Notes: generated by a model from the letters alone, not told the origin. A stretch of DNA of 38,143 bases from Acidobacteriota bacterium (GCA_003224725.1 QHZQ01000002.1:1-38143), one strand, 5' to 3'. Counted from the first letter of the stretch, positions 4,408 through 25,613 are shown. A program made the numbers and translations.

Positions 4408-4419
4408 GATGATTCCTAA

Positions 4420-4570
4420 CGCCCTTGAATCGCTTCGAACTGCGGTTCTGTCGGCAACGGATCCCTCACCCGTCCTTCGGCCACCCTCTCCCCAGGGGAG
4501 AGGGGCTGGGAATGTGAGGACGGCAGATTAGCAAACTTGACCAAAGTTTAAACTTCGCCACCAAGGAACT
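4420..4570 (+). mobile_element. Family-A hairpin repeat element, copy 1
   Basis: CCCTCACCC..GGCCACCCTCTCCC..GGGAGAGGGGCTGGG..GGACGGCAG.TTA.CAAACTTGACCAAAGTTT is shared with 5674-5890 and 19623-19774. CTAA on both sides (4416-4419, 4571-4574). Confidence 0.75.
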
Positions 4571-4955
4571 CTAAACCCATGCTAGCACATCGTTCTGATT
4601 CTGTTGCAGGAAATTGGTTGCATGCATGGGCTTCGGTTTCGATCGCCGATCCTTGACAGATCTTTGATGCGGGGACGCCTGTTTTTGACCCACTCTTGAT
4701 ATCATTTGCCCTATAGTCGGAAATCGGAAAGAGAGCGCTGATAAAAATCGTGGATCCGGCGGAGAAAAACGCCAGATGGGAAACGCAGCAGCCAGCATCA
4801 CCAGCGCCTGAGCAGCGCCGCGAGGTTCTACACCCAAACGGACTAATCACTGGGCAACCGCAGGCCCAAGGGCACGCGGTCACGTCTGGGATCCACTGGT
4901 AGAAGAAAACAACCGCGATGGCGCAAAGGTTTCTGCAAGGAAAGGGAGGAACAAC

Positions 4956-5564
4956 ATGTCTGATGACAACTTCGTTGTGGCGGTCTACACCACCGATACG
5001 GACGTAGAGGAAGTCGTGATACTACTCCAGAAGTCCGGCTTTAACACCAAGAAACTCTCCATCGTCGCTAAGGATGACCAAACAGAGGAGCGCGCCGTGG
5101 GCTACTACATCACCGGCGGCCGAATGAAGTACTGGGGCAAGCGGGCCCCCTTCTGGGGGAGGGTATGGGGGCTGTTGGTTGGTGCGGCCTTTTTTGCCGT
5201 TCCAGGCGTTGGACCTGTGCTGGTGGCTGGACCCCTGGTGTCTTGGATAGTGGGTACATTTGAATGCACTGTCATTGCGGGCGGATTGACCACCGTCGGC
5301 GCGGGATTATACCGTATCGGCATTCCGCACAACAGCGTCCTGCAATATGAGGCCGCACTCAAGGCGAACAAGTTTGTGCTGGTGGCTTACGGCATGACAC
5401 ACGAAGTGGCCGGAGCGCTGGACATCATTCAAACAACACGCTTCACAAACTTAGCTGTGCATTCGGATGTTCGTTTGGAACGTGCGGGTACTAGACAAGC
5501 GTACACCTTAAAGACCCGGAGCATCTCTCGAAGAGATCTCGAGAAAAGCGGGCCCGCCCAGTGA
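4956..5564 (+). CDS. DUF1269/general stress protein-like membrane protein
   Basis: LQKSGF..KKLSIV.KD, GYY..G.RMKYWGK, PGVGPVLVAGPL and LY.IGIP..SVLQYEAALKA.KF. RBS GGGAGG. Confidence 0.8.
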   Translation: MSDDNFVVAVYTTDTDVEEVVILLQKSGFNTKKLSIVAKDDQTEERAVGYYITGGRMKYWGKRAPFWGRVWGLLVGAAFFAVPGVGPVLVAGPLVSWIVGTFECTVIAGGLTTVGAGLYRIGIPHNSVLQYEAALKANKFVLVAYGMTHEVAGALDIIQTTRFTNLAVHSDVRLERAGTRQAYTLKTRSISRRDLEKSGPAQ

Positions 5565-5604
5565 AGCAAACGAACACCATTTTCATCTCCAGGAGGTTAA
5601 TCCG

Positions 5605-6106
5605 AAGTCCGGCTCCAATATGAAGAAACTGTCCATCGTCGGCAAGGATTATCACACAGAGGCATGTTCTAGGGTTACTTGGTGGTGAAGAAGTTCAAAC
5701 GTCAGTCAAATTTCTTAAGCTGCCGTCCCCTCACCCAGGGAGCTTACTCAAAGCTCCCATGCCTCTCCCAATGGGAGAGGGTGGCCGAAGGTGAAGTCTT
5801 GAGAAGACTTCACGCGGTCGCGGAGGCCGGGTGAGGGGTCCGTGGCCGATAGAGCCGCACTCCTCGGCGGTGTGAGGTTGCTCGCTACAACTAGGCTGCT
5901 AGAAGGCGGGAGACCAAATGAAGTACTGGGGTAAGTTGGACACTTTCTGGGGTGGGGTATGGGGGCTATTGTTTGGAGTGGCCTTTTATGCTGCGGCCGG
6001 CTTTGGACTTCTGCAGGTAGTTGGCCTCCTGATGTCTTGGATGGTAGGTGTACTGCGGAAGCGATGGCTTGCTGCGTTCCTCGAGCGACCTGGGAAGGTG
6101 CGTTAG
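5605..6106 (+). pseudogene. Degraded paralog of the 4956-5564 gene, split by a family-A element
   Basis: 5605-5672 reads KSGSNMKKLSIVGKDYHTE-HVL. 5894 onward reads GC*KAGDQMKYWGKLDTFWGGVWGLLFG. Collinear with the upstream gene. Confidence 0.85.
5674..5890 (-). mobile_element. Family-A hairpin repeat element, copy 2, with CTAGG target duplication and two extra internal hairpins
   Basis: Reverse complement aligns with 19623-19765 and 4431-4570. CTAGG at 5669-5673 and 5891-5895. Removing it restores the host reading frame. Confidence 0.88.
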
Positions 6107-6215
6107 TTTTTAGGGCTGTCGCTGAACAGTGGGATGATCACCATTCGCTGCTTGAATTTTTTGGAAATATAGGCTCAGATAATAGTTGGACGAATTGATG
6201 GAGGTTACATAGTTA

Positions 6216-6584
6216 ATGATACATCGGCTTTTTAGAAGGTTTTGGACTCACTTCCTGATTGCCTTCGATGATAACTACACGCTGGAAGGATTTGAAAGAG
6301 CTCCGAAAAAATTTGACCTGCCTAAGAACTTCACATGGCTTGACTCACACCTGAAGAGAAAGCTAACAATTTGCAATCTTTTTGCAAATCAGAATCAATC
6401 GATAAGGAATATTGCCCGCGTGCTGGAGGTCGATTTGGGTGATGTGGTTTCAGCGCTTATTGAGGACGGCCTCATCAAAGAACGCCGAACCACGGCCGAA
6501 ATCATCAAGCAGGAAAGACGCCAGGAACGAATTCTCCCTTGGTCCCTGGCAGGACATCATCGGGTCAGACGTGGTAAGCCGTAG
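6216..6584 (+). CDS. Hypothetical protein with an HTH-like segment and ERR motifs
   Basis: GGAGG RBS then ATG. SIRNIARVLEVDLGDVVSAL resembles a helix-turn-helix. KERRT..QERRQ near the C-terminus. Confidence 0.6.
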   Translation: MIHRLFRRFWTHFLIAFDDNYTLEGFERAPKKFDLPKNFTWLDSHLKRKLTICNLFANQNQSIRNIARVLEVDLGDVVSALIEDGLIKERRTTAEIIKQERRQERILPWSLAGHHRVRRGKP

Positions 6585-6819
6585 CTGACACGAGGTAGCC
6601 AGTAAAACATCCCCTGAAAAAATTCACCTTGGAAGGCTTCGCCTTCTGTCCCTCCCTCCCTCAAAGCTGGACGGTGCCTTGGAAAGCGCAACACCCCAGA
6701 GTACAAAGGTCCTCAGACGCTCCATTAATCGCTTCCCATTGAAATTGATGAGGAAGCCTCGTTTGATGCCTGAGAGTCTTTCAAGTAAGTCAGTGGATTT
6801 GGCCTCCTGGATCTTGGCT

Positions 6820-6913
6820 CTTCATGCCCTTCATGTTCTTCATGGTAGACGGGCTTCGACGATCTTTGTCACTTGATTCGTCCACTACCATGAAGGACAT
6901 GAAGACCATGAAG
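6820..6913. repeat. 29-bp inverted repeat built from 9-bp CATGAAGNN units
   Basis: cttcatgcccttcatgttcttcatggtag (6820-6848) versus ctaccatgaaggacatgaagaccatgaag (6885-6913), 3 mismatches. Confidence 0.85.
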
Positions 6914-7109
6914 GATCAGCACGACGCTGCTCAGACCACCCACTAAGCGCTCCACATTCAGTCCAACCACTCCATTACCGTTTACTCCTGGGTGCATCCC
7001 AAAATGACAATTGAAAATTCAGAACTGAAAATCTAGACTGGGTACCTTATCAGACACTCTTGAATTTCCTATTTGGACTTTATTCTTGCACGTTCCAGGA
7101 AAGGATAGG

Positions 7110-8725
7110 ATGAAACTCAATATCAATTTCTTCTTCAAGACTTGCAGTTGGATCTTACTGACCGCCATTGGGGCTTGGGGCGCCGATCGTTACGAGCTGA
7201 AGATTGATCGTGGAGTGACCGTGAAGATGCGTGACGGCATAACCCTGCGAGCCGATATCTACAGGCCGAAAGCAGATGGCAAATTCCCCGTTTTGCTGCA
7301 ACGCACCCCTTACGACAAGAGGGGCGCTTCAGACTTTGAACTTCAGGCTGCCGCTCGCGGGTATGTCGTCATCATCCAGGATGTCCGCGGACGCTACACT
7401 TCCGAGGGCGAGTGGTACCCTTTTCTGAACGAATCTCAGGATGGCTTCGAGACGGTAGAGTGGGCCGCGGCTATGCCTTATGCAGACGGGAAGGTGGGAA
7501 TGTTTGGAGCCTCCCAGGCATCTTTCCTGTGGTTACGGCTTCCAACTACCACGATGGGTGGACTTACCAGGGTGGCGCCTTTGAACAATGGTTCAGTGAG
7601 TCCTGGACATCTGGTTTGGCCCAGGACACTCTCAATCGCCGAGTCCAGAAAAATTCCAATGCCCTGCAGTGGGTCTGGAAGCTGCCGCTGACAAACTATC
7701 CGTTCTTTGACCTCGGCAGCACGGAAGGCCTGGCGAGTTACTTTATCGATTGGCTCAAGCATCCCAGCTATGACGAGTACTGGCGGCGATGGTCGATTGA
7801 GGACTATTATTCAAAGGTGATGGTGCCCGCCTATCATGTAGGGGGATGGTACGACATCTTCATGGGGGGGACGGTGAGAAATTATGTGGGACTGAAGGCC
7901 GCAGGCGGGAGCGACGAAGCTCGACGGGGGCAGCGCTTGCTGATTGGCCCCTGGTATCACGGGCCATTTAATGGAAAGAGCGGTGAAATGGACTTCAGTC
8001 CCCAGGCCAAAGGAGATACCGACACGGGACGGAGCGAGAGAAGCCAGTCAAGATTTTTGTCATGGGCAAAAACACTTGGCGCCAGGAAGACGGTTGGCCG
8101 TTGGCTCGAGCCCGCAGCACGCGTTACTTCCTGCACTCTGGAGGAAATGCACACTCCCTGCCTGGTGGCGGAGACCTCAGGACGGCCCAGCCACAAAATG
8201 AAGGTCCAGACACTTTCATTTACGACCCGGCAGAACCTGTGCTGACCCGTGGAGGTGGGTTGTGTTGTGATAACGATCGTCTTGCTTCGGGCGTCTTTGA
8301 TCAAAGACCGATTGAGGCACGAGGCGATGTCCTGATTTATTCAACCCCAGTTTTCAAAGAAGATTTCGAGGTGACCGGGCCTGTCTCGCTGGAACTCTAT
8401 GCCAGCTCTTCGGCCGTGGATACCGACTTTACGGCCAAGCTGGTGGACGTCTGGCCCAATGGATTTGCCCAAAACTTGACGGACAGCATTCTCCGGGCGC
8501 GCTACCGATAAGTTCACCATCGATCTCTGGGCTACCAGCAATGTCTTCCTGGCCGGTCATCAGCTGAGGTTAGAAATTTCCAGCAGCAATTTTCCGCGTT
8601 TTGATCGCAATTTGAACACTGGAGAGGATCCAAGCCAAGCCACGCGACTGCTGAAGGCGAATAACACAATCTACCATGACCGCGAGCATCCATCGGCCCT
8701 GCTATTGCCGGTATTACCACAGTGA
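7110..8725 (+). pseudogene. CocE/NonD (peptidase S15) hydrolase in four fragments separated by deletions
   Basis: MRDGITLRADIYRP, RTPYDK, QDVRGRYTSEG | GGWYDIF, LIGPWYHG | YDPAEPV, DTDFTAKLVDV | IDLWATSNVF..LEISSSNFPRFDRN..HPSALLLPV*. Frame breaks near 7514, 8023 and 8508. Confidence 0.9.
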
Positions 8726-8774
8726 AGAAATGCACTATTGAGACTAACTACTTGACACACTGACTTCGGCAAAC

Positions 8775-8873
8775 AGGGCGAGCCTCCTGGCGAGCCATCG
8801 CCCCAGCAAATCCTTGCTCCATGAGGCTCGGCGGGAGCCTCGCCCTCCAGATCTCGGCCGGTTGGGGATTTTC
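8775..8873 (+). repeat. Family-B palindromic repeat (GGCGAGCCTCC..GAGCC / GGCTC..GGAGCCTCGCC)
   Basis: Closely matches 16565-16663, the interior of the MITE, but lacks the intact TIRs. Confidence 0.85.
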
Positions 8874-8929
8874 AGGACGGCGACTGCCGCGAACCGGAGG
8901 AGGTAGCAGTCCTCTAACGAATAACGAAT

Positions 8930-9000
8930 CGTGCTCTTGCTCGTACTCGTGCTTTTGCTCGACTTCAAAACCGAGCAAAAATAACAGACTCGAGCACGAA
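8930..9000. repeat. Inverted block of 6-bp tandem units (CTCGTG-like / CGAGCA)
   Basis: tcgtgc-tcttgc-tcgtac-tcgtgc-ttttgc-tcg, then ccgagcaaaa and ctcgagcacga. Confidence 0.65.
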
Positions 9001-9020
9001 TCCGCCTAATACCTACAATT

Positions 9021-9456
9021 TTATGAGCGTCTCGCCTCTTCGCGAATCTTGGCATAGCCAGGTTTGATCACGTTGAAGATGATCTGGCAACGCTGGTTGT
9101 AGGGAATAAAAGCACTTTTCATCGCGTTGATGCTGATTTTTTCCAAATCGTCCAGTCCCAGACCAAAGGTTTGGGCAGCGGCTCGAAACTCCTTGGCGTT
9201 CCAGCGCCGCCTCAGTCTGCATTACGGCAATGGTGTGCGCGAAACCTTCCAGATATTTGGCCAAGCTGCCCTGATTCGCACCACGAAAGAACCACTCAGC
9301 CAGCTCCTCGGGATCTTGAGTTGGAAGCTTTGAATACTTGGCTTCCTTTGCCAGCTCAACAATGGTGCGAGGTCGCAACGCCCCATCCAGATGCTCAGGC
9401 AACAAGACCTTAGGTAACCGTCGCAACAGGGCCGCCTCAAATTTCAATGGAGTCAT
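9021..9456 (-). pseudogene. add: Adenosine deaminase with a large internal deletion
   Basis: N-terminus LPKVLLPEHLDGALRP..SLAKYLEGFAHTIAVMQT is joined near 9195, in another frame, to the C-terminus KEFRAAAQTFGLGLDDLEKISINAMKSAFIPY..VIKPGYA. The first metal-binding His appears replaced by Pro. Confidence 0.88.
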
Positions 9457-9767
9457 CCTTGCCGCCTTCGACGCGCACCATAGCCGGAAATCGTTTTTTG
9501 AGAGACGAGGGAGCCTATGTTCGGGATGCTGGTGGCAATTGGTACCTCGATTGCTTCGCGGCCTTTGCGCCCCGTCCTTATGGCATGATCTCGATCTTGA
9601 ACCAATGACAGCGTGGGAATCAAGTTACCAACAAGCTGGAAAAGTTTCCCCTTTTGGCTCGAAAGTCATCTAAGAAAAATCGCTTTCTTTTCGACTGTTT
9701 TCAAGGATATAATTCTGAATTAAGCAATTATTCAATTTGTATTGGCGTCATTCGATGCGAACCCCAA

Positions 9768-9784
9768 TTGGTAATAGAGTTGCT
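9768..9784 (+). promoter_or_regulatory. Candidate sigma-54 promoter of the flp pilin gene
   Basis: TTGGTAATAGAGTTGCT has GG-N10-GC spacing, about 90 bp upstream of the ATG. Confidence 0.5.
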
Positions 9785-9874
9785 CCTTCCTGCAGTGTCA
9801 AGAGGGTGTCAAGAGATTGGGTTCGCACCCTCGTCGAAAGACCAAACAACACAATTTACTAAAGGAGAACTACC

Positions 9875-10057
9875 ATGTTACTTGCCTTACTGCGATTACA
9901 AGGGTTTTTAAAGGAAGAAGAAGGACAAGACCTCGTTGAATATGCTCTACTGCTGGTATTCCTGGCTCTGGCTGCCATCGTTGTGCTGCCTGTTCTTGGC
10001 AATGCCGTAAACAATGTATTCAGTCAATCTGCCAGCACATTGACGACTGCCTCCTAA
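9875..10057 (+). CDS. flp: Flp/Fap type IVc (Tad) pilin
   Basis: 60 aa with the KEEEG|QDLVEY Flp motif followed by a hydrophobic helix. RBS AAGGAG. Confidence 0.93.
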   Translation: MLLALLRLQGFLKEEEGQDLVEYALLLVFLALAAIVVLPVLGNAVNNVFSQSASTLTTAS

Positions 10058-10084
10058 GGTTTATAGAAAGTGGGTCAGCCCTGA

Positions 10085-11077
10085 TCATTTCTGCACTGCG
10101 TAAACTTGTATCTGTGCAGGCTGATTGCCACGTCGTGGAACAGCCAGGTACAAACGATCCAATGTTGGCGCAAAGAGTGATGTTCGTGCACCCGTTGCCG
10201 TGGCGATTTTTGCAACGGCCGGGTAATGGTCAGGGTCGAGCTGATCAAAGACGTTGATGTAACCTTCCCCACATGAAACGTAAATGCGTTTGTGCACCTC
10301 GTCATAAAAGAGGTCGTCGGTATCCCGGGCAATCGTTAGTTTGATGACTGCTTGGCCTGAAGTTGTATCAAGAACAAGCACCGTTGCCGGCTGACGGCAA
10401 CCTACGAATAAGCGGTGATGGGCTTCATCCAGTGCCATTGGAAAGTTGGCACGTGCGCCGTGGAGTGGCCACTTTGCAACCACAGTTCGCTTCGACCGAT
10501 CGATCACCGCAACATGCCCGGCCTTGGGGACATTTGCAAAAATTCTCGGTCCCGATTTTTCTAGTTGGAAGGACTCGGGATGTCCCTCCAACGGGATGTC
10601 CCCCAGCCGTTTACCATCTGTGGCATCAACGGCTGCGATTCCGCCGTCGCCGTAGCCCACAAACAATTGTTTCGAGCTGAGATCATAGCGTACGTTGTCA
10701 GCATCACCTGACAAATTGATGCTGGTGATCGGCTGCAGCGTGTCACCATCGAACATCTTACAAGTCCCATCTCCGCCGTTTGCCACAAAGATTTTGTTGG
10801 ATTCGGGGAGGTAAACCACTCCCTGTGGTTCGTTTAATCCTTCGATGCGTCCCATCTGCTGGCCGGTTCGCATACGTAAGATCTCTAAGCTATGATTACC
10901 CAGGGCAGCCACAAATACTCTCTCCCCCTCCGGGTCCACAGCCATATGATCAATGCGACCTCGCACCAGAGGCATGGAGATGGTTTGTACCAAACGCAGC
11001 GGCTCTTTTTCCCTGGACTGAGGCGTGGCCATCCAAACGATCACGACCAATAGAAAGATCACATTGCATCTTTTCAT
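10085..11077 (-). CDS. Secreted YncE/YVTN-like beta-propeller protein
   Basis: Signal peptide, GRIDHMAVD, PQGVVY, DADNVRYD, GHPESFQLE, ANFPMALDE and GARTSLF. RBS GGAGG. Confidence 0.8.
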   Translation of the reverse strand: MKRCNVIFLLVVIVWMATPQSREKEPLRLVQTISMPLVRGRIDHMAVDPEGERVFVAALGNHSLEILRMRTGQQMGRIEGLNEPQGVVYLPESNKIFVANGGDGTCKMFDGDTLQPITSINLSGDADNVRYDLSSKQLFVGYGDGGIAAVDATDGKRLGDIPLEGHPESFQLEKSGPRIFANVPKAGHVAVIDRSKRTVVAKWPLHGARANFPMALDEAHHRLFVGCRQPATVLVLDTTSGQAVIKLTIARDTDDLFYDEVHKRIYVSCGEGYINVFDQLDPDHYPAVAKIATATGARTSLFAPTLDRLYLAVPRRGNQPAQIQVYAVQK

Positions 11078-11274
11078 GTCACCTCCACGTGCTCGGAACT
11101 TAATCTTTACACCGTCTTATCCAACAAAGTTTAGCATCACAATGAACAAAACCGTCGAGCTCGTAGAGGCAAAATATTTATAAGAACACGCCCAAAAAAT
11201 GGATGGAACTCATTAGGAGCAATCTCAGGGGACAACCCACAAATTTGTCGAAAACTCAGCAATAAAAGTGTAAA

Positions 11275-11303
11275 TTTACGAACGTATGAAATCTGTGTAA
11301 AAT
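11275..11303 (+). promoter_or_regulatory. Candidate sigma-70 promoter for adk
   Basis: TTTACG-17 bp-TAAAAT with TGTG immediately upstream of the -10, in an AT-rich gap. Confidence 0.45.
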
Positions 11304-11414
11304 GAAGTTTTCCGGCTGCCTGATGTAGTCCTCAGATTCGGGCGATGGCTGAGAGAATCAAATTCTTAACTCGATTGTCAGACATTTGGCAAATTCAAAG
11401 GCGGGTACAGGGCA

Positions 11415-12086: not shown

Positions 12087-15000
12087 TCAATAGCGACAGG
12101 ATCATAGAAATACTCACTCCGCCAATGACCGCGATGGCCAGAGGTTGAAGCATTTGTGCGCCCGACCCGACGCCCAGCGCCAGCGGCAGCATGCCGAAAA
12201 TCGTTGCCAGGGCGGTCATCAAAATCGGGCGAAGCCGACGACGACCTGCCTGAAAGATGGCTTCCCGCAGCGCATAATGGCGCGCGCTGAAGTATTTTTC
12301 CGCATCCAGCATCAGAATGCCGTTCTTATGCACGATGCCCACCACCATGATCGCACCCATAAATGAGGAAATATTGAGAGTCGAGCCTGTCAGGTAGAGT
12401 GCCAGCAGAGCCCCAAAGCCGCAAAGCAGCGTGGCCAGCAGGATGGCGATGGGATGGGAAAACGAGCGGAACTCGAAAACCAGAATGACGAAAATGAGCA
12501 GAATCGACATTAACAACACCTGGGTCAATCCCAAGAAGGATTCACGTTGAATTTGATATAAGCCGCCAAATTCAATCTCGGTTTGAGCTGGCAAGGATAT
12601 TTCCTTAAAGAGGCGGTTGCGAATCTCATTCATCGCCGAGCCCAAATCACGCCCGGAGAGATGAGCAGTAACCGCCGACATGTTGCGCAGATTGTCGCGA
12701 TGGATCTCGGTCTGTCCCTCTTCTACCTCCACTGCCGCGATGCTGGAGAGAGGCAGGGTGACACCGGTCGGCGATGTGAGCTGAAGCGATTTCAATTTTT
12801 CGATGGAGGAGCGATATTCTGCCGGGTAGCGGACACGAATCCCGATCAGCCGATCGCCGCGGATCATCTGGGAAGCCAGTTCTCCGTCCAGGATGGCTGT
12901 TTGAAGCTCCGCCACATCCCGGACAGCAAAGCCGGCGCGCTCGGCTTTTTGGAGGTCCACGCGGAAGTTGACGGCAGGGCCAATCACAATAGTTTGGTTG
13001 ACCACATCGACCACCCCTTTGATTTTGGGCAGCCAGTTTTCGATTGCCCGAGCCACATTTTTAAAGGTGGCCTCATCCTCATGATAAATCTTGATCTCAA
13101 TCGGCTGGGGTGACCAGGCCAGATCCCCAATCAAATCTTCCAAAATATGAGGGAACTCCACTTCGATAGCGGGCTCGGATTGCACGATTTTGCGACGTAA
13201 CTCGTCAGTGACTTCCGCCAATGGACGCTTGCGGTCGCGCTTGAGCTTCACCAGGAAGTCACCCGTATTGGGCTCCGCAATGGCCAGTGCCAGCCTGGCA
13301 CCGGTGCGCCGGGAGTAATTCTCAATTTCTGGAGTTTCACGCAAATACTGTTCGATATGGCGCAAGACACGATCCGTTTCCTGAAGAGATGTCCCCGACG
13401 GCATGATGTAGTCCAGCACGAAGGCGCCCTCGTCCAATTCTGGCAGGAAGCCACTCCCCAGTCGCCAATAAATGAGGATCGAGCTGCCAAGGATAAGGAG
13501 CGCAGCCGCTAAAACCAGGCGCGCATGGGACAGCGCCCAGTGAAGTACCGCTTCATAGCGCTCGGTCAAGTTTCGCAGGATCCAACCTTCCCCCGCCTGC
13601 TCGGCTTTGCGAAGATCCAAGGCTTCCGTATCAAGACCGTCTAGGAGCGGTCTATCACCCACTCTCCCCGTTTGCTTTAAGAACAGCCGTGCCAACACCG
13701 GCGTAAAGAAAATGACCAGAAAGAGCGAAGCCAACAGTGCCGTGACCAGGGCCAGGGCAAGGGCGCGAAAGAAGACGGCGGTAATGCCTCCTAAGAACAC
13801 CAGCGGAACAAAAACGACGATCGGGGTCAGGGTTGACCCGATCAAGGCCGGTGTCAGCTCCTGGATGGCGCTTTTGGCCGCATCTGGAGGCGATTGCCCC
13901 AATGAGAGTTGTACGATAATGTTCTCCACCATCACAATGGCATCGTCAATCACGACTCCAATGGAAGCCGCCAGCCCTCCCAGGGTCATAAGGTTGAAGC
14001 TCATGTGGAAGAGCTTCATGAAAACAATGGCAATCAGCGTAGCAATGGGAATGACCAGAGCTGCTACCACCGTAGTTCTCCAGCTCTTCAGAAAGCCTAC
14101 CAGCACCGCCACTGAGAGCAATAATCCGATCAAAAGGCTTTCGGTAACACTCGATATAGAATCCCGCACCAGAATCGACTGGTCGTAGAAGATGGCCAGC
14201 TCAATATCGGGCGGCAAGGTTCGGCGGATTTCGCGAAGCTCTTGGTTGACAGCACCGGCAATTTCAACGGCGTTGCCGTCTGGCTGTTGCAACACGTTGA
14301 CTAACACCGCCGGACGACTATTGGCCGTCACGATATTGTAAACCGGCCGCTCACCCGGAATGACCTGGGCCATGTTCTTGATCAATACGGGGGTTCCCTT
14401 GACGACACTGACCACGGTATCTTCGATTTGCTCCCTTTGCCGCAACAACCCGGTGACGGTGGTCAGGTAGAGACGATAGTTCTCCTGTACCATTCCGGCC
14501 GCAGCAATCATGTTGTTATTGCGGATGGCGTCGACCACCTTGGTCAAGGGCAGGCCATAGCTGGTGAGCTTTTCAGGATTAACGATGACATGATATTCCT
14601 GGGGGCGTCCTCCCACGATGCGGGTTTCGGCAACTCCAGGCAAGCGGTAAAGACGGGGAGCAAGATTGTAATAGGCCAGGTCCCAAAGCTCAGCCATGGT
14701 GCGAGTCGGCGAAGTGATACTGAATCCGATCATGGGAAACACGGAAAAGGTCAAACGATTGATGTAAAATCGCGCCGATGGCGGCAGCGAAGGCGTGATC
14801 TGGGAAATGCGTCCTTGCACCAGATGCAAGGCATTGAGGATATCGACATCCCAACGCAAGAAGACGCTGATTTCAGTGGAGCCGCGGCTGGTGACCGACC
14901 GAACGTTCGTGATACCCGGCACCAGGCGGATGGCCTCCTCCAGGGGGCGCGTCACGGTAAGCATCTGGACGTCGACTGGAGCAATGCCGTTGTCAACCAG

Positions 15001-15147
15001 AATGACGATCCGCGGGAAGTTGGTCTCGGGAAAAATTGCGATCGGCAGTCGAAAGATGAAAAAGCCTCCAGCTAGCGCAAAGCTGAGGACAATCAAGAGC
15101 AGTGCACGGCTGTGGGCTGCGACGAAGTCCGCCACATGGGCCGTCAT
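12043..15147 (-). CDS. RND efflux permease (AcrB/CusA-CzcA family)
   Basis: 1034 aa. NLMTLGGLA, VIDDAIVMVENI, FLPELDEG, KNGILM, RRRLRPILMT and QPLAIAVIGG. Confidence 0.95.
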   Translation of the reverse strand: MTAHVADFVAAHSRALLLIVLSFALAGGFFIFRLPIAIFPETNFPRIVILVDNGIAPVDVQMLTVTRPLEEAIRLVPGITNVRSVTSRGSTEISVFLRWDVDILNALHLVQGRISQITPSLPPSARFYINRLTFSVFPMIGFSITSPTRTMAELWDLAYYNLAPRLYRLPGVAETRIVGGRPQEYHVIVNPEKLTSYGLPLTKVVDAIRNNNMIAAAGMVQENYRLYLTTVTGLLRQREQIEDTVVSVVKGTPVLIKNMAQVIPGERPVYNIVTANSRPAVLVNVLQQPDGNAVEIAGAVNQELREIRRTLPPDIELAIFYDQSILVRDSISSVTESLLIGLLLSVAVLVGFLKSWRTTVVAALVIPIATLIAIVFMKLFHMSFNLMTLGGLAASIGVVIDDAIVMVENIIVQLSLGQSPPDAAKSAIQELTPALIGSTLTPIVVFVPLVFLGGITAVFFRALALALVTALLASLFLVIFFTPVLARLFLKQTGRVGDRPLLDGLDTEALDLRKAEQAGEGWILRNLTERYEAVLHWALSHARLVLAAALLILGSSILIYWRLGSGFLPELDEGAFVLDYIMPSGTSLQETDRVLRHIEQYLRETPEIENYSRRTGARLALAIAEPNTGDFLVKLKRDRKRPLAEVTDELRRKIVQSEPAIEVEFPHILEDLIGDLAWSPQPIEIKIYHEDEATFKNVARAIENWLPKIKGVVDVVNQTIVIGPAVNFRVDLQKAERAGFAVRDVAELQTAILDGELASQMIRGDRLIGIRVRYPAEYRSSIEKLKSLQLTSPTGVTLPLSSIAAVEVEEGQTEIHRDNLRNMSAVTAHLSGRDLGSAMNEIRNRLFKEISLPAQTEIEFGGLYQIQRESFLGLTQVLLMSILLIFVILVFEFRSFSHPIAILLATLLCGFGALLALYLTGSTLNISSFMGAIMVVGIVHKNGILMLDAEKYFSARHYALREAIFQAGRRRLRPILMTALATIFGMLPLALGVGSGAQMLQPLAIAVIGGVSISMILSLLITPVLFYWLRQWGL

Positions 15148-16757
15148 TTCGGATTCTCCTGGGACAGGCGCACTTCCGTACCCTCGGGCAGCCCGTAGCC
15201 ACCCTCAACGATGACTACTTCGCCAGCACTCAGCCCTTTCTTGATTTCATCCACTTCCCTTTGGTGCGCAATGCGCTTTTCATCCACGAGCAACACGGAG
15301 CCGAAGTGAGTGCCTTCCTTAAACTGAACGGCCGCCACGGGGACCACCAGACTCTTAGGGGCAGTCCCCGTGACAATGCTGAGTGTGCCAAAAACGCCCG
15401 CTCGTAAATGCTGTGTCTTATTGGGAATCTCACACCACACTTCAACAGTGCGCCGCGACGGGTCCACGGCCTTGTTAACCACAGTCACCTGTCCTTGGAA
15501 GGTTTCCTGACTCGAATCGGTTGGAACAAAAATGCCGCGCTGACCGGCGCGCACAGCAGTCGCTTCAGACTCTGGCACCTGGGCGCGAGCTACCGCCACC
15601 GAAAGATCCATGATCGTAAAGACAGGGACCTCGGGTTTGGCCATGTCGCCCGGATAAAGAAACTGCTCCGTGATGCTGCCTGAGAAAGGGCTGCGCAGTT
15701 CGGTGAACTGAAGCTGAGCCTCCGTCAGCTCGAGCCGGGCCCTAGCTTGAGCCAGACGGCTTTCGGCGATGCGAATGTCTTTGTCCCGTGATTGAGTTTC
15801 AAGCAGTTCGAAGGATTTCTTGGCCACTTCGTAAGCAGATTTAGCCTGGGCCAGTTCCGTTTGACTGACCAGTAGATCGCGCTGGGGAATAGCTCCTTGC
15901 TGGAAAAGCTGGCTGCGCCGGTCACAGATTTTTTGGGCTTGGTTCAAACCGGCTTCGGCCGTGATCAACTCTCCACGAGCGCGTTCAATCTCGGTTGGCA
16001 AAGTACCCGCGGAGATCTTCTGCAGGTTGGCCTGGGCGTCATTCACTGAAGCTGCTGCTTCCGCCCGTTGCGCCCGGATATCTCGGCTTTCCAGTATGGC
16101 CAGTACCTGACCCGCAGCCACGCTACTGCCCTTCCGGACGCGGAGGCCTCGAATGGGCGCGGTAATGCGCGCCGCTAGGTTGGCCTGCTCCCGGGGAAAA
16201 ATGCTGGCAGGTGCATGCACGGTGATGCGAATGTCAGACAATTCTACCCGAGCCACTCTGACGGTGACGATGGGTTTGGCTTCGGTTTCGTCGTGGCGAC
16301 TGCAACCGGCGTTTAAGAGCAGCCACGAAAAGACCAAGGTCGACACGAATAAGGAACCCAGCTCTAATCCAGAGAGAGCAACCAAATCCGCCTTAGAAAT
16401 GGAGTGAAAAAAACCCGTTTGACTTCGGTTTCGGAAGAAAGGGCAAGTTATGGGCGCCCCCTCACCTGGCCTTTGGCCATCCTCTCCCCCAATGGGGGCG
16501 AGGGAGCTAACTATAGGCTCACTCTCCCCTCGCCCTCTCTGAGGGAAGGTGTGAAAGAATTGGGAAGGCAAGCCTCCTGGCGAGCCGCCGCCCCAGCAAG
16601 TCCTTGCCCCATGAGGCTCGGAGGGAGCCTCGCCCTCCCGATCTCGGCCGGTTTGGAATTTTTTCACACCTTCAGGGAGAGGGGCCGGGGGTGAGGCTGA
16701 TTTTTTCACGCCTCCAGGGGGTGCGGTGGGCTCTTCCAGATTTTCTCTGACCGTCAA
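15144..16757 (-). CDS. RND periplasmic adaptor (MFP); N-terminal region largely repeat-derived, true start uncertain
   Basis: Lipobox-like LNAGC, lipoyl half-motifs (VRKGSSVAAGQVL, LRSPFSGSI), alpha-hairpin and GLSAGEVVIVEG. Stop overlaps the RND start (ATGA). Confidence 0.85.
   Translation of the reverse strand: MTVRENLEEPTAPPGGVKKSASPPAPLPEGVKKFQTGRDREGEAPSEPHGARTCWGGGSPGGLPSQFFHTFPQRGRGESEPIVSSLAPIGGEDGQRPGEGAPITCPFFRNRSQTGFFHSISKADLVALSGLELGSLFVSTLVFSWLLLNAGCSRHDETEAKPIVTVRVARVELSDIRITVHAPASIFPREQANLAARITAPIRGLRVRKGSSVAAGQVLAILESRDIRAQRAEAAASVNDAQANLQKISAGTLPTEIERARGELITAEAGLNQAQKICDRRSQLFQQGAIPQRDLLVSQTELAQAKSAYEVAKKSFELLETQSRDKDIRIAESRLAQARARLELTEAQLQFTELRSPFSGSITEQFLYPGDMAKPEVPVFTIMDLSVAVARAQVPESEATAVRAGQRGIFVPTDSSQETFQGQVTVVNKAVDPSRRTVEVWCEIPNKTQHLRAGVFGTLSIVTGTAPKSLVVPVAAVQFKEGTHFGSVLLVDEKRIAHQREVDEIKKGLSAGEVVIVEGGYGLPEGTEVRLSQENPK
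16458..16504 (+). repeat. Family-A core hairpin (partial)
   Basis: cccctcacctggcctttggccatcctctcccccaatgggggcgaggg matches the core of the other family-A copies. Confidence 0.75.
16545..16673. mobile_element. 129-bp MITE with 17-bp TIRs and AGG flanking duplication, carrying the family-B palindrome
   Basis: GAAGGTGTGAAAGAATT ... AATTTTTTCACACCTTC (1 mismatch). AGG at 16542-16544 and 16674-16676. Confidence 0.82.
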
Positions 16758-16887
16758 ACCGCCCCCCTGACCCCTTTCTCAAGGGCGAATAGATTTGCCG
16801 AAACGATCTTGCCTGAAAACCAAGAAAAACAAAATGTCATGAGCTTGTGTCCGGGTAACGCCGCGATTCCATGGATCCAATAAGTTC

Positions 16888-18177
16888 TCACTGTCCAGAG
16901 GCAACCTCGAGATCTGCTCGTGCATTCAAGTAGTTGGCCACGGTCGAGTAATAACTCGTACGCGCCTGGGCGAGTTGATTCTGGGCGGCTACCACATCCA
17001 GTGCTGAGCCTTCTCCGCCCTCATAGCGCAGTCGACTAAGCCGCAGGTTTTCTTCGGAAAGGCTTACCTGGGACTGGGTCAGACTGATCTGAGCGTAGAT
17101 CATTTTCACCCCTGCCAAGGCATTTTGGTACTCCCTGGAAAAGGTGCGCTCGGCGATTTGGCGATTGGTTGTCACTTGTTGGGCTTCCTGTTGAAACTGG
17201 CGAGAGGCGCTGAGTGACTTAAACCAGTCAAAGACGGGAACGTTGAGGTTGACAAAAGCCGCGTATCCGCGGTCACGAATCCGGGCCTGTAAGGCATCGA
17301 GGCCATACTCGAAGACAAGACTGGCTTGCGGAAACAAATCGGCCCTGGCCCGGCGCGAGTCTGCCAGAAAACCGCGGCGTTGAGCCTCCAGAAAGTTAAA
17401 TTCCAAACGTCGCATAAAAGGGGCATTCGCCTGGGTCTGGGACACGGTATCTGGAGAAGGCGCTGTTTGCTCGAATACATCTACCAAGGGGAGAGGGTCG
17501 GTGACTGCAGTGGTCCAAAAGGACGCCAGATCGTGGTTCGCCACTTGAGTTTCAAGTTCGGCCGCTTTGACTGCCTGCTCCAGGACGGCCACCTGAGAAG
17601 AAGCTTTGACCACATCAGCCTGAGCGGCTTCGCCATTTTGAGCCAGGAGTTTGGCTCGCCCTTCAAAACTTTGGGCGTCGGCCAGCGCGTCACGCGCCAC
17701 TTGAACCAATCGGCGAGCCAACAGAAGATGGTAATAGGCAGCCGTGACGGCCCTCTTGAGGTCTCGCTGAGCCAGTCCTAAATTGGCTGCTGCGGCCTGT
17801 TGATCGGCGCGGGCACGCGCCAGGGTTGCCCGTAATTTCCCGGAAGTGTCCAATTCCTGTCCGATGGTAAACAGAGAGGTATATTCACGAATACCGTTGA
17901 GCGCCACGAAACTGAAGGTTTCAGGATGGTCGATTTGAGGACTGTTGTAAGCGTAGGTGTTGGTCAGATGAGCCTGAGGGAGAAACCCGGCGCGGGCCTG
18001 AGAGAGCCCGTAGCGTGTTATCGCGGTTTGCTGCCGGGCCAAGCTCACCGCCGATGGCGCCGATTGCGCCAACCGAATGCAATCGTCCAGGGTGAGAAGA
18101 TTAGTTGCCGGCTGGGCAAGGACATAAACGGCTGTGACCGACCAAATAGCAGCGACACGAAAAACTTTTCGCAACAA
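16888..18177 (-). CDS. TolC-family outer membrane efflux protein
   Basis: Signal peptide, LTLDDCIRLA, two OEP repeats (AVTAAYYHLL, RYEGGEGSALDVVAAQ). GGAGG RBS with TTG start. Confidence 0.92.
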   Translation of the reverse strand: MLRKVFRVAAIWSVTAVYVLAQPATNLLTLDDCIRLAQSAPSAVSLARQQTAITRYGLSQARAGFLPQAHLTNTYAYNSPQIDHPETFSFVALNGIREYTSLFTIGQELDTSGKLRATLARARADQQAAAANLGLAQRDLKRAVTAAYYHLLLARRLVQVARDALADAQSFEGRAKLLAQNGEAAQADVVKASSQVAVLEQAVKAAELETQVANHDLASFWTTAVTDPLPLVDVFEQTAPSPDTVSQTQANAPFMRRLEFNFLEAQRRGFLADSRRARADLFPQASLVFEYGLDALQARIRDRGYAAFVNLNVPVFDWFKSLSASRQFQQEAQQVTTNRQIAERTFSREYQNALAGVKMIYAQISLTQSQVSLSEENLRLSRLRYEGGEGSALDVVAAQNQLAQARTSYYSTVANYLNARADLEVASGQ

Positions 18178-18247
18178 TCGAATCCTCCAAATCCCTTCTG
18201 CCGCTGAACGGATCGGTTCATGGTTCAGCCGACGTAGAAACGCTGGG

Positions 18248-18266
18248 AACTACGGCAGCCGTAGTT
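18248..18266. promoter_or_regulatory. Perfect 9-1-9 palindrome upstream of the efflux operon (possible operator)
   Basis: AACTACGGC-A-GCCGTAGTT, about 70 bp before the TolC start. Confidence 0.4.
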
Positions 18267-18318
18267 TAAGCCCACCTGCGATCATCGGCGTTCACCGTCT
18301 TCTCTTCCCGTCTCTCCC

Positions 18319-19377
18319 TTACCTTTTTCCACTAAGATTTTTCGCCTGCTCCATAGCGATTTCGTTGATCGTGTTGAGGGCCCTGGAATTAGAAGCCCCT
18401 TCGATGGCTTTCACGGCAATCGCCTGTACCTGGGTGTTGGCCTCCTCCAGCTTTTTCGTCAATCCCTCGAGTTGGGCGGCCTGTTTGGCCACCATTTGTT
18501 CCAAAGCTGCGATCCTAAGCTCAGCTACTCGTTTGTCCCCTTCGGTCTCTTTAGCTCTGAGCAGCTCCTCTTGTTTAAATCGAGTTTCACTCCGCTGAGT
18601 GGCTTCTCGTTCGGCTCGTTCCACGGCTGCAGAGAGGTCCCCAGGGAAAGCTGCGACTCTGGCACGCAACTCCGAAAGCTCAGTTTCAACTGTCGATACC
18701 GCTGCCTCACGAGCAGCCAGTTCTTGTTCCTGTTTCAATCGCTCTTCTTTCAACGCCTTTTGCAAACTGGCCTTCTGCTCTTCATAGAGGTCTTTGTCTT
18801 TCTTTCTGGCCAACGATAAAGTGTAATCATATTCTTCTCGCTCCCGCTCACGTTCCTTTTTCAGCTTGGCTTCATTTTCCTTCAGTGCGGCGACGTAGGT
18901 CTCCTGTTCTTTCTTCCAGTCCGCTCTTTTTGCGGCCATCTCGGCTTCAAAGCTTTCTGTTTCCTCGGCCATTTCCGCAGCGAAGACTGCTTTCTTTTCA
19001 GCATGATCCCGAATCAAAGAAGCGAGCGTGTCGGCGGCGAGTCGAGTATCATGGACTTCCTCCAAGTGTTTGGTCTCGATGGCAATCGCTTCTCGAATCT
19101 CCGTCAACTTATTGGCTTCGGCGGTCAGTTCTCGCGACAGATCCGTCAGGGCCTTGCCTACATAAATATTCACATTGGCTAAGCCCGTGATGATGGATTC
19201 AACCGTATAGGTTGACGCTTTTTCTACCACACTCGTTTCAGCCGCCTTCTTCACTTCCATTTGCTTCTCTGAGAGACCCGTACTTTTTTCCTGAAATCTT
19301 GCCACCAGGTCATTATAGGCCTTGAGCATTTCTTCTTTGGTGCTCTTCAGCGACAGGCGTGCAACCGGCTTTTCCAT
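18319..19377 (-). CDS. Long coiled-coil hypothetical protein (352 aa)
   Basis: E/K/A/L-rich helical sequence with no TM segment or signal peptide. ATG at 19377 has RBS AAAGGGGG. Confidence 0.85.
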   Translation of the reverse strand: MEKPVARLSLKSTKEEMLKAYNDLVARFQEKSTGLSEKQMEVKKAAETSVVEKASTYTVESIITGLANVNIYVGKALTDLSRELTAEANKLTEIREAIAIETKHLEEVHDTRLAADTLASLIRDHAEKKAVFAAEMAEETESFEAEMAAKRADWKKEQETYVAALKENEAKLKKEREREREEYDYTLSLARKKDKDLYEEQKASLQKALKEERLKQEQELAAREAAVSTVETELSELRARVAAFPGDLSAAVERAEREATQRSETRFKQEELLRAKETEGDKRVAELRIAALEQMVAKQAAQLEGLTKKLEEANTQVQAIAVKAIEGASNSRALNTINEIAMEQAKNLSGKR

Positions 19378-19416
19378 GCTTATCCCCCCTTTTGATCCCC
19401 TCAAATGAATATCTAT

Positions 19417-19435
19417 CTGACCCTTAGACGGTCAG
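19417..19435. promoter_or_regulatory. Palindromic operator candidate CTGACC-N7-GGTCAG
   Basis: Lies between the 19377 start and a minus-strand TTGTCT-18-TAGAAT promoter candidate (19473-19502). Confidence 0.45.
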
Positions 19436-19622
19436 GTCATCTTAATCTAGGAGCTGATTTTTTTGAAAGAGTATTCTAAGCCAGAATTGCAAAGGGAGAC
19501 AATTGAAACGAAGAGAAGAAACCCCACGAAAGCCGATCCTCTCGTGACCTTTGGTCACCCTTCCCTGGGGCAGTCTCAAAAAAGAGAGAAAAGGAGGAGC
19601 TGGAGTTGAGGATTAAGGCTGA

Positions 19623-19774
19623 TTGTAGCGAGCAACCTCAGACCGCCCAGGATGACGGCTCCATCGGCGACTGACCCCTCACCCGGCCTGCGGCCACCCT
19701 CTCCCAATGGGAGAGGGGCTGGGGGTGAGGGGACGGCAGGTTAACAAACTTGACCAAAGTTTGAAGGCGGCTTG
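19623..19774 (+). mobile_element. Family-A hairpin repeat element, copy 3
   Basis: Starts TTGTAGCGAGCAACCTCA, exactly like copy 2. AGGCTGA at 19616-19622 and 19775-19781. Confidence 0.85.
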
Positions 19775-19783
19775 AGGCTGAGA

Positions 19784-25212: not shown

Positions 25213-25613
25213 GAAAAAATCTAACCGCAAGGGAAAATCTAACCGCGAAGGCGCAAAGAACGCGAAGAAAAGCGATGCCCAGGGAAAAGAGGCAAGGCGA
25301 ACCACGAGGGAGCCAGGGGACAGAAAGAAAAAGGTGGAACCGCGAAGACGCGAAGGACGCAAAGAAAAGCAAGACCAAGAAAAGAGACGAAAGGCGAACC
25401 AGGGGAGGTGGGGAGACTCTCAAGGGACAACAGGTCCCCAGGCCATTTCTAAAAATTCACCGCGTTCAAACAGCTTTCTTCTTCCTGTTTCGCTTTCCTT
25501 CGCGTTCTTTGCGTCTTGGCGGTTAGATTCTGCTTCTTTGGTCTTGCTTTTCTTCGCGTTCTTCGCGCCTTCGCGGTTAGATTTTTTTCTTCGCTTCTGA
25601 GTTTCTGCGGTTC
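25213..25613. repeat. ~400-bp palindromic array of 9-bp-periodic units (AACCGCGAAG-GCGCRAAG-AACGCGAAG)
   Basis: Forward units near 25213 (partial), 25233 and 25337. Reverse units near 25490, 25536 and 25589. Between convergent genes. Confidence 0.9.

Follow-up and report, generated by a model that had tools for sequence, protein, structure and literature searches.

Repeats and genes in the window

The window (the whole stretch of DNA analysed, 38,143 nucleotides) carries three copies of a dispersed repeat, named family A in this work, together with a YflT-domain gene, the broken paralogue of that gene and repeats of other kinds. The features are the following.

4423..4570, plus strand: family A copy 1 (nhmmer model positions 12-166 at 4423-4574; direct repeat D2, in which 4443-4552 matches 19656-19765 at 85%)
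5604..6049, plus strand: decayed paralogue of the YflT-domain gene 4956-5564, broken by copy 2 (homology at 5604-5662 and 5894-6049)
5669..5672, no strand: CTAG adjoining the 3' end of copy 2, target-derived (from the sequence and the CTAG at the right flank throughout the family)
5673..5888, minus strand: family A copy 2, complete, 216 nt (nhmmer matches 5888-5822 and 5791-5668)
5891..5894, no strand: second CTAG, 2 nt ahead of the 5' end of copy 2 (from the sequence; left flank resembling type A, defined below)
16458..16502, plus strand: central hairpin module standing alone (CCCTCACC..CCTCTCCC..GGGGCGAGGG), distinct from the family A copies (nhmmer model positions 51-105 only)
16527..16691, plus strand: a different high-copy repeat, not family A (inverted repeat I9, direct repeat D3)
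19625..19765, plus strand: family A copy 3 (nhmmer model positions 1-141)

The three dispersed copies proposed in an earlier note on this DNA exist, far beyond chance (best non-self blastn E-value 1e-65), with boundaries now refined to 4423-4570, 5673-5888 and 19625-19765. Copy 1 has an intact 3' end (..CACCAAGGAACT), followed by CTAA at 4571-4574, and is devoid of the family 5' end, its first 20 or so nt being unrelated to family A. Copy 2 (C17_5888_5667) starts with GTAGCG at 5888, finishes with ..AAGTAACC at 5673 and contains two additional hairpins within the outer stem. The paralogue that it interrupts is recognised by direct repeats with the gene at 4956-5564, whose Pfam match is YflT (D5, 5030-5088 with 5604-5662, 81%; D1, 5100-5255 with 5894-6049, 76%). 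The flanks of copy 2 read CTAGTT/GTAGCG .. /CTAGAA, slashes marking the ends of the element; CTAG is present on both sides (5669-5672 and 5891-5894), and the fifth base differs. Copy 3 has an intact 5' end, stops after ..AAAGTTTGAA with the last 21 nt (CTTC..AAGTAACC) missing, and is 98.6% identical to a copy elsewhere in the genome (C336:665-805). Alignment with a sister genome places the resumption of native sequence downstream of it at about 19766. The AGGCTGA on both sides of copy 3 is no simple duplication as had been assumed: the right one is native, being conserved in the sister genome, and that on the left recurs at a related copy on C389.

The start common to copies 2 and 3 (GTAGCGAGCAACCTCA) and the far end common to copies 1 and 2 (CCACCAAG.AAC) are true termini of the family, and the TT ahead of GTAG in copies 2 and 3 is flank, outside the element. 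The first two partial cores listed with these copies do not belong to family A. The module at 16458-16502 is shared with at least four further repeat families defined by their flanks (seen among 60 of the 141 module-only loci). The stretch 16518-16696 is a different repeat, with a core of about 135 nt (16541-16677) between the two arms of a hairpin module; 16567-16662 is 91% identical to 8777-8872, and about 30 matches to 16530-16696 are listed in the sister genome G001. The third, 19536-19570, gives no nhmmer match to family A at E<=1e-3.

Extent, ends and fold of family A

In the 6.6 Mb genome of this soil bacterium family A is represented by 466 nhmmer HSPs in 361 loci, which make up 0.65% of the genome. 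Both ends are present in 118-120 loci by strict criteria and in 146-151 by relaxed ones, about 150 overall; the analysis of flanks was done on 115 copies with both ends. A blastn search of the genome with 19616-19781 as query returned 284 HSPs, 135 of at least 100 nt and 110 nearly full length. The unit is 162 nt long (GTAGCG...AAGTAACC), with variants of 181, 198 and 216 nt; its 5' boundary reads GTAGCGAGC.. and its 3' boundary ..AAGTAACC. Positions 1 to 4 are G, T, A and G in 98, 112, 111 and 113 of the 115 copies, and in eight the first base is C, giving CTAGCG in place of GTAGCG. Family A has no terminal inverted repeats, since GTAGCGAGCAACC does not match GGTTACTTGGTGG, which is the 3' end in reverse complement; the sole inverted match of the ends is GTAGCGA with GTGGCGA, located 9 nt inside the 3' end. 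Copies are almost always intergenic and dispersed singly, with few pairs less than 8 kb apart. The median identity to the nearest neighbour is 0.95, and 14 of the 115 copies reach at least 0.97. Truncated copies are few and, judged by their flanks, mostly chimeras joined inside the shared hairpin.

The many two-ended loci, the high nearest-neighbour identity and the position of copy 2 inside a gene paralogue indicate that family A is mobile. Together these data support the view, in agreement with the earlier note, that family A is a non-autonomous, gene-less mobile DNA element with defined ends. No previous description was found in a full-text literature search with three element strings, where the matches listed were unrelated. 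Rfam 15 has no match in the window, and in three copy-bearing loci (E<=1) only two chance-level matches were obtained, both outside the copies.

The consensus single strand is predicted to fold strongly (MFE of -80 kcal/mol as RNA and -41 kcal/mol as DNA), with hairpins near both ends in the DNA as well as the RNA folds. GTAG forms the 5' foot of the predicted closing helix, which begins at positions 4-7. The 5' hairpin sequences differ between subfamilies, and one subfamily, found in other genera, has no 3' strand of the outer stem, so that the outer helix is not essential. Within one bacterial family the central hairpin is conserved, occurring in 14 of 24 genomes, and similar hairpins are found on Rhizobium and cyanobacterial plasmids. 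Such folds and such conservation are what would be expected if family A were no longer mobile and consisted of functional structured RNAs or protein-binding sites under selection. We regard this as extremely improbable, as it is contradicted by the filled and empty sites described below and by the insertion into the gene paralogue, and as there is no covariation (term +0.43, with both bases changed in only one of 32 pairs), no Rfam match and no preference among the four gene contexts, which are about equally frequent (25, 23, 19 and 17). The related proposal of a mobile structured RNA was not borne out by the same covariation values, and the copies show no orientation bias to neighbouring genes.

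Integration 5' of CTAG and its two junction outcomes

Family A integrates immediately 5' of a CTAG or near-CTAG site. In the right flank C, T, A and G occur at the four positions in 107, 109, 104 and 101 of the 115 copies, and in the left flank, at -6 to -3, only in 78, 66, 85 and 53. At the 3' end (..AAGTAACC) the junction with the target is precise, whereas the 5' end (GTAGCG..) is either joined directly, without duplication, or joined after CTAGN has been copied and at least one base added. Evidence for both outcomes comes from empty sites. In all six paralogous empty sites the element lies exactly 5' of the target (CTAG, CTAA, CTTG, CAAG, CTGA or GTGG) and there is no duplication. In both clean orthologous empty sites the target CTAGN is duplicated, with at least one extra base before GTAGCG; these two copies, C63 and C410, are the only strict type-A copies with both flanks on one contig of the sister genome, which has a single CTGA where the present genome has CTAG-element-xx-CTAG. 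Three more orthologous comparisons, with non-strict copies, show a CTA-like motif pre-existing left of the site and 2-4 unmatched junction bases, and are poorly explained.

Type A, defined by CTAG at -6, comprises 35 of the 115 copies. Of 25 strict type-A copies, 20 have the same fifth base on both sides (p=5e-8), and the extra bases at the 5' junction number one to three. In none of the 115 copies does CTAG stand directly against GTAGCG (at -5 or -4). The variable-length duplications of the earlier note are better seen as a pair of discrete outcomes at CTAG, with no continuum between them. Both outcomes are open to the same element: the copies at C329:20391 and C670:2819, with 100% identity over the columns they share, have opposite junctions, and copies with and without duplication are intermixed on the tree. 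The target CTAGC is found in 21 of 43 duplication-free copies and in 4 of 35 type-A copies (Fisher p=5e-4). This target resembles the GTAGC start of the element itself.

One explanation of these junctions is a site-specific recombinase (tyrosine, serine or IS110-type DEDD) which inserts a circle, the ..AACC/GTAGC junction recombining with /CTAGN so that a short core is left on both sides. The likeness of the CTAGC target to the GTAGC start in the duplication-free type (21/43), the CTAGCG start of 8 of the 115 copies and the asymmetric ends without inverted repeats are in its favour, as are four unoccupied CTAGNxCTAGN sites with equal N that could be excision scars. However, both the fifth and the extra bases of type-A copies differ between near-identical copies and hence, unlike a core, do not travel with the element, the duplication at orthologous empty sites is real, none of the copies was found beside a recombinase and the single IS110-type gene has ends unrelated to family A. 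We consider this explanation unlikely.

Equally, the true 5-bp duplication at both orthologous empty sites might be the work of a DDE transposase, family A being a classical MITE whose partner IS is unassembled or lost and whose duplication-free copies are secondary. The assembly is indeed fragmented (763 contigs) and incomplete (88.7%), and CTAG is used by two DDE elements of the same genome, an IS630-like element inserted at the TA within CTAG and an IS5/IS1182-like element flanked by CTAG. The inverted repeats of these two elements are unrelated to the ends of family A, which has no such repeats, and no element with both family A ends exceeds 372 nt. Moreover, at least one non-inherited base always separates duplication and element (no exception in 115 copies), which is not a product of DDE strand transfer, and insertion is exact and duplication-free at all six paralogous empty sites. 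That a DDE transposase fits the flanks poorly, as the earlier note implied, is supported by the missing inverted repeats and by the empty sites, with no duplication in 6/6 paralogous against 5 bp plus at least one base in 2/2 orthologous ones, and we judge this origin improbable.

The junctions, precise at the 3' end and variable at the 5' end (a duplication of 0 or 5 bp, one to three extra bases), also recall RNA-mediated copying, in which a nick at CTAG would prime reverse transcription from the 3' end, as in a SINE, and the 5' junction would be finished variably. Two related copies with 7 nt (8 of 9) in common upstream of GTAGCG and four RVT_1 matches in the genome would agree with this. 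The three complete reverse transcriptase ORFs scanned combine RVT_1 with a group II maturase domain, though, and two of the loci have an Intron_gpII match, so that they are ordinary group II introns; truncated copies are few and mostly hairpin chimeras, not 5'-truncated copies with duplications, and no orientation bias suggests read-through transcription. We know of no SINE-like, target-primed RNA-copied element in bacteria, and hold this route to be very unlikely.

Candidate enzymes and comparison with known systems

No autonomous partner of family A was found in the genome, where the non-family DNA between two family A ends never exceeds 372 nt. The genome has six Y1_Tnp (HUH) genes, several of them flanked by shorter GTAG-headed palindromes, and the genomes of relatives have 10-21 Y1 genes each. 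A REP unit and a family A copy occur at the same point of one composite repeat. The link to GTAG and RAYT suggested in the earlier note is partly supported by the GTAG at the 5' foot of the helix and by these Y1 genes with their palindromes. Co-location, proposed there as a check, was not observed: the 5' and 3' modules of family A are absent from the flanks of all 36 Y1 loci examined in five genomes, six in this genome and 30 of the 65 listed for four relatives, and two loci have weak matches to the central hairpin only. TnpB was not found in the genome, and the single typical IS200 copy has other ends than family A and an in-frame TAG.

Our best reading, which we put forward tentatively, is that family A may be moved in trans by an HUH/Y1 single-strand enzyme (RAYT or IS200-type), the first junction being precise and the second variable. 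The substrate would be the strongly folded single strand of family A. A sequence-specific HUH/Y1 enzyme acting on single-stranded DNA (RAYT or IS200/IS605-like) would form the first junction, cutting beside sTAG both at the start of the element (/GTAG) and at the target (/CTAG). Where the same enzyme also performs the second strand transfer, a duplication-free insertion would result; where it does not, a host polymerase might fill in five bases and add an untemplated base, mostly A, before the end is ligated. Classical IS200/IS605 transposition makes no duplication and we infer that the type-A copies (35/115) need this added repair step. The constant length of the 5-nt fill-in is not accounted for by HUH/Y1 mobilisation. 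The guide-sequence principle of IS200/IS605 is given by Messing et al. 2012 (PMC3479197).

A more specific proposal, which we think rather doubtful, is a DNA reaction, one-end-first and target-primed, of a kind not described for bacterial elements. The HUH enzyme would join only the 3' end to a cut 5' of CTAG, and completion of the other junction would fall either to a second enzymatic transfer or to host synthesis that fills in exactly five target bases and adds an untemplated one. If true, a single element would give both duplication-free and duplication-bearing insertions, REP/RAYT biology would be linked to true transposition, and the spread of orphan hairpin repeats in Acidobacteriota would be explained.

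Among known systems, MITEs of the IS630/Tc1 and IS5 types resemble family A in being small and non-coding and in the rare target CTAG, often beside TAG stop codons. IS630-type elements have inverted termini and duplicate the TA within CTAG. Family A, unlike IS630- and IS5-type MITEs, has neither inverted termini nor a fixed TA or CTAG duplication, its duplicated unit being CTAGN.

PATEs are non-autonomous derivatives of IS200/IS605 elements (HUH Y1 TnpA), for which IS608 and ISDra2 are the models. Family A is like them in having unlike, hairpin-bearing ends without terminal inverted repeats, in lying on one fixed side of a tetranucleotide (CTAG, 101-109 of 115), in the absence of duplication in type B copies (6/6), that is the duplication-free ones, and in the presence of Y1 genes in the genome. 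It differs in that about a third of the copies have a real 5-bp duplication plus extra base, that no IS200/IS605 element with family A ends and no TnpB were found, and that no strand bias relative to replication, expected where the lagging-strand template is used, was seen (local GC skew agrees with the orientation of 60 of 110 copies, p=0.39, the skew being weak and the contigs short).

The REP, REPIN and BIME sequences associated with RAYT are imperfect palindromes of 20-40 nt with GT[AG]G at the 5' foot, often in inverted pairs or clusters, and copies of them flank the RAYT gene (REPtron), whereas the family A unit is multi-branched and 162-216 nt long, is dispersed singly with sharp ends and a defined CTAG target, and is not beside any Y1 gene examined. 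The E. coli RAYT (PMC3479197) binds GTAG at the foot of a hairpin, cleaves at CT to either side of it and could carry out the strand transfers one after the other. Family A likewise has GTAG at the 5' foot of a helix and a CT-containing cut site outside the hairpin, is intergenic and of high copy number, and shares its genome with Y1 genes bearing GTAG-headed palindromes. Acidobacterial Y1 genes are flanked by repeats ('TIR') with the motif GGGGWSAS, according to Di Nocera et al. 2013 (PMC3733652), and GGGGTGAG of the family A central hairpin fits this motif.

Abundance and anatomy of family A

Family A is a gene-less repeat of about 162 nt, with the 5' end GTAGCGAGC (GTAGCG..) and the 3' end AAGTAACC (..AACC). 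The window carries three copies:

Copy 1: 4423-4570, + strand, without the family 5' end
Copy 2: 5673-5888, - strand, of the 216-nt class, with extra hairpins inside the outer stem
Copy 3: 19625-19765, + strand, without the final 21 nt

A repeat scan of the window gave 85% identity over 110 nt between copies 1 and 3, and matching stretches of 77 nt and 43 nt between copy 2, on the other strand, and copy 3. The genome searched (G000; 6.63 Mb, 763 contigs, 88.7% complete) includes the window as contig C17. Blastn with copy 3 gave 284 HSPs, 135 of them of at least 100 nt, and a profile made from 53 copies gave 466 HSPs, which were merged to 361 loci representing 0.65% of the genome; both ends were present at 118-120 loci by strict criteria and at 146-151 by relaxed criteria. 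By these counts family A is real and abundant, and the earlier note was right in describing three copies in the window and termini shared across copies. The consensus unit begins with GTAGCGAGCAACCTCAGACCGCC, ends with CTTCGTCGCCACCAAGTAACC and measures 162 nt.

Larger classes of about 181, 198 and 216 nt have additional hairpins within the outer stem CCCCTCACCC/GGGGTGAGGGG. The tips carry no inverted repeats; the sole inverted match, GTAGCGA/GTGGCGA, is set back 9 nt from the 3' end, and in a predicted multi-branched fold this pairing would be the closing helix. Predicted folding energies of the consensus are -80 kcal/mol for the RNA form and -41 for the DNA form. The further suggestion of a mobile structured RNA was not supported: family A has no Rfam match, the covariation term was +0.43 with a double change in 1 of 32 pairs (28 copies, three genera), and all four contexts relative to the neighbouring genes are about equally frequent. 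Among 115 copies, 108 lie between ORFs. Copy 2 interrupts a paralogue of a YflT-domain gene (5604-6049); this paralogue also has an in-frame TAG (ggc tgc tag) directly downstream of the insertion and therefore seems to be a pseudogene. For annotation it is relevant that such repeats break assemblies, yield spurious ORFs (e.g. 16404-16694) and, as with copy 2, may disrupt genes.

The sister genome (G001) has 302 candidate full copies, and full copies are also found in two other genera. The exact 5' end was found in 22 stretches in five MAG records, four titled Acidobacteriota and one Acidimicrobiia. The runs containing window DNA are soil metagenomes; in four of these soil runs the metagenome contigs end at repeats and none spans an element. 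In an RNA run 13 contigs lay over the window, three of them touching copy 3 at 90-95% identity.

Two types of junction at CTAG

Flanks were compared for 115 full copies. The four bases following ..AACC are C, T, A and G in 107, 109, 104 and 101 copies respectively, and positions -6 to -3 of the left flank are C, T, A and G in only 78, 66, 85 and 53. The sole co-varying pair of flank positions is left -2 and right +5 (57 of 115, z=5.6). In strict type A, defined by CTAG at -6 plus CTAG on the right (n=25), the fifth base is equal on both sides in 20 copies (p=5e-8), and the left CTAGN is parted from GTAGCG by one base, which is A in about half; CTAG directly abutting the 5' end of the element occurs in 0 of 115 copies. 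Type B, without the left motif, comprises 43 copies, and has C as the right fifth base in 21 of them versus 4 of 35 among all copies with CTAG at -6 (Fisher p=5e-4). CTAGC, the favoured type-B target, is thus similar to GTAGC, with which the element itself begins.

Filled and empty sites could be compared in two ways. Searches with the flanks turned up paralogous empty sites in the own genome for six copies, and in all six the insert was exactly GTAGCG...AACC with no duplication, immediately 5' of CTAG, CTAA, CTTG, CAAG, CTGA or GTGG, so that insertions of type B are truly free of duplication. In the sister genome the sites orthologous to two strict type-A copies (C63 and C410) are empty, with flanks abutting at C63 and 4 nt apart at C410. 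Each of these sites holds a single CTGA where the own genome has CTAG-element-xx-CTAG, which makes type A a true 5-bp target duplication with at least one added base. The variable-length flanking duplications of the earlier note are better seen as two separate outcomes at CTAG than as a continuous range. In three other orthologous comparisons, all of copies with CTA-like left flanks only, the motif was pre-existing and 2-4 junction bases were unmatched. At nine further copy-bearing loci (among them the window, C571, C625, C467, C329, C632, C670 and C719) the orthologous search ended in contig ends or non-alignable spacers.

Several other origins of the flanks were rejected. Against insertion into pre-existing tandem CTAGNxCTAGN targets speaks the single motif copy in the strict type-A empty sites, and only 14 CTAGNNCTAG sites occur genome-wide, two being at family A copies. 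If type B arose by slippage between cTAG and gTAG, CTAGCG starts would be expected, and only 8 of 115 copies begin with C; by our reading, the right flanks of these are not C-rich either. Targeting of stop codons was also dismissed: 16 of 115 right CTAGs end an ORF of at least 100 codons versus 171 of 1500 random CTAGs, and the tie to stop codons is no more than CTAG itself gives.

In the tree of copies types A and B are intermixed with equal divergence, and the type-A copy on C670 is identical over shared columns to the non-A copy C329:20391; the same source can therefore have two outcomes. That family A is mobile and directed to CTAG we regard as very likely.

Four unoccupied CTAGN-x-CTAGN sites with equal N (C407:1623, C639:19542, C458:4685 and C673:6428; CTAGAACTAGA twice, CTAGCTCTAGC twice) could be scars of type-A excision or could be due to chance.

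The hairpin module and other repeats

At 141 loci of the own genome the central hairpin module is the only part of family A present and, among the 60 of these listed, it is embedded in at least four flank-defined groups of other repeat families with flanks of their own. By our reading of these sequences, most copies that appear truncated would be chimeras with other repeat families, the junction falling inside the module. One hairpin module is common to, and exchanged among, several families. The supposed partial cores of family A in the window have accordingly to be reassigned, the first being related through its module and the second being another repeat:

16458-16502: stand-alone central hairpin module
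16527-16691: different repeat, very abundant in the sister genome

Of 24 genomes from the same bacterial family, 14 have the module alone, against 0 of 16 from other families in the class, and hairpins resembling it are found on plasmids of Rhizobium and cyanobacteria.

An unrelated repeat of about 135 nt is located at 16541-16677 and 8777-8872 of the window, the two copies being 91% identical, with about 30 matches listed for the sister genome; in the stretch 16527-16691 it stands between both arms of a hairpin module. A composite repeat of several xTAG-headed hairpins (..TTAGCCTCGGAGAGGCGCAAGACA ATAGCCCACGGCGTCAGCCGTGGG..) gave 21 matches, including those on C62, C182, C320 and C721 and at C22:27121. 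The stretch 25234-25591 of the window, between a DUF1501 gene and a dehydrogenase gene, is densely filled with repeats, both direct and inverted (I2, I3, I5, D4, D8; AACCGCGAAGGCGCAAAGAACGCGAAGAAAAGCG.. and its complement); PSCyt1, PSCyt2, PSD1 and DUF1501 genes are present in the window. Two ORFs that overlap, 27847-30048 and 29814-31169, correspond to the first and the second half, respectively, of the PF25183 outer-membrane beta-barrel family, and the whole of 27847-31169 is probably a single gene split by a frameshift or an assembly error.

Candidate enzymes and comparison with known elements

CTAG is rare in the own genome (6904 sites, observed/expected 0.27); the corresponding ratios are 0.40 for GTAC and 0.50 for CTAA and TTAG. 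This tetranucleotide, four-fold depleted here, serves at least four different mobile elements. The loci with transposase or reverse-transcriptase genes which concern the discussion below are:

C221 (L037), about 727-1972: complete IS630-like element, 382-aa DDE_3 transposase
C719 (L195), about 1299-2919: IS5/IS1182-like element, DUF772 + DDE_Tnp_1 + DDE_Tnp_1_6
C635 (L031), 1469-1890: typical IS200-type TnpA gene, in-frame TAG in conserved ..SKWNCK*HVVF..
C158 (L167) and C421 (L169): near-identical pair of group II introns, with Intron_gpII match and a 498-aa RT + maturase ORF
C508: third RT-maturase gene

The two DDE elements also use CTAG, each with its own TIRs. The one on C221 has 20-bp inverted termini GATGrTAGTTCTkTTAATAA and is inserted at CTAG with TA on each side; the one on C719 has 16-bp termini GAGTCTGTCGGAGAAA with CTAG on both sides, and sits in the CTAG flanking a family A copy. 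A further small element (C16:3020-3175, C314, C586 and others) ends in the inverted repeats TTTCTGTCGCGAAA and at several sites is flanked left and right by CTAGCTAG.

In family A, ..AACC is joined precisely to |CTAGN, and the second junction is made either directly or after five bases have been copied and one or more added. An HUH enzyme might account for both outcomes by cutting the folded single strand 5' of sTAG, both where the element begins and at its target. Complete enzymatic exchange would yield type B; were the second transfer to fail, a 3' end would be left, which host polymerase would extend by five bases and an untemplated base before ligation, giving type A. Polymerases have a preference for an untemplated A. 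The own genome has six Y1 (HUH) genes (on C68, C507, C700, C52, C146 and C635), several of them flanked by GTAG-headed palindromes (e.g. GTAGCCCAGGCGTTCACGCCTGGG at C68), and its relatives have 10-21 such genes. At C22:27121 a family A element replaces the 35-nt REP unit of the composite repeat. Against a Y1 link counts that 0 of 36 Y1 loci examined in five genomes had family A end modules. The orientation of copies agreed with the local GC skew, which is weak, in 60 of 110 cases (p=0.39). No TnpB gene was found, and a search for IS91/Y2 gave no match in this genome or in the control genomes. The TnpA on C635 is, judged from its reading frame, probably inactive. According to PMC3479197, the E. 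coli RAYT binds GTAG at the foot of a hairpin, cleaves at a CT dinucleotide on either hairpin side and, as a monomer, might do strand transfer singly, one strand per step; PMC3733652 describes repeats with a common GGGGWSAS flanking acidobacterial Y1 genes. Altogether the HUH mechanism is put forward tentatively, at somewhat below an even chance.

It competes with three other readings: a recombinase of the core type, an unassembled DDE partner, and reverse transcription. For the first, a homology-dependent core carried by the element was rejected because the fifth base varies between near-identical copies; the possible co-location with IS110 raised in the earlier note was not borne out either, the own genome having one such gene with flanks unrelated to family A. 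For the second, family A is no DDE MITE by the usual criteria, lacking inverted termini and a fixed duplication and having an obligatory, non-inherited extra base; in the own genome the rve domain gave one sub-threshold match, and no longer element bounded by family A ends was found. As to reverse transcription, there are four reverse-transcriptase matches; three carry a group II maturase domain, with an Intron_gpII match at two of these three loci.

Family A strings gave no relevant full-text match among the papers listed, though the supplements of PMC3733652 (REPtron lists, alignments) might hold related repeats, and a literature search on Planctomycetes and MITEs yielded the REP survey alone. 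With its sharp ends, a target of four bases, identical copies that speak for recent activity and two clean types of junction, family A makes the question of how such repeats move testable. The intergenic space of many soil bacteria is filled with small orphan hairpin repeats, and the movement of REP-like elements is, to our knowledge, a long-standing open point. We group family A with the REP/PATE-like orphan elements; its unusual feature is the two-outcome junction.
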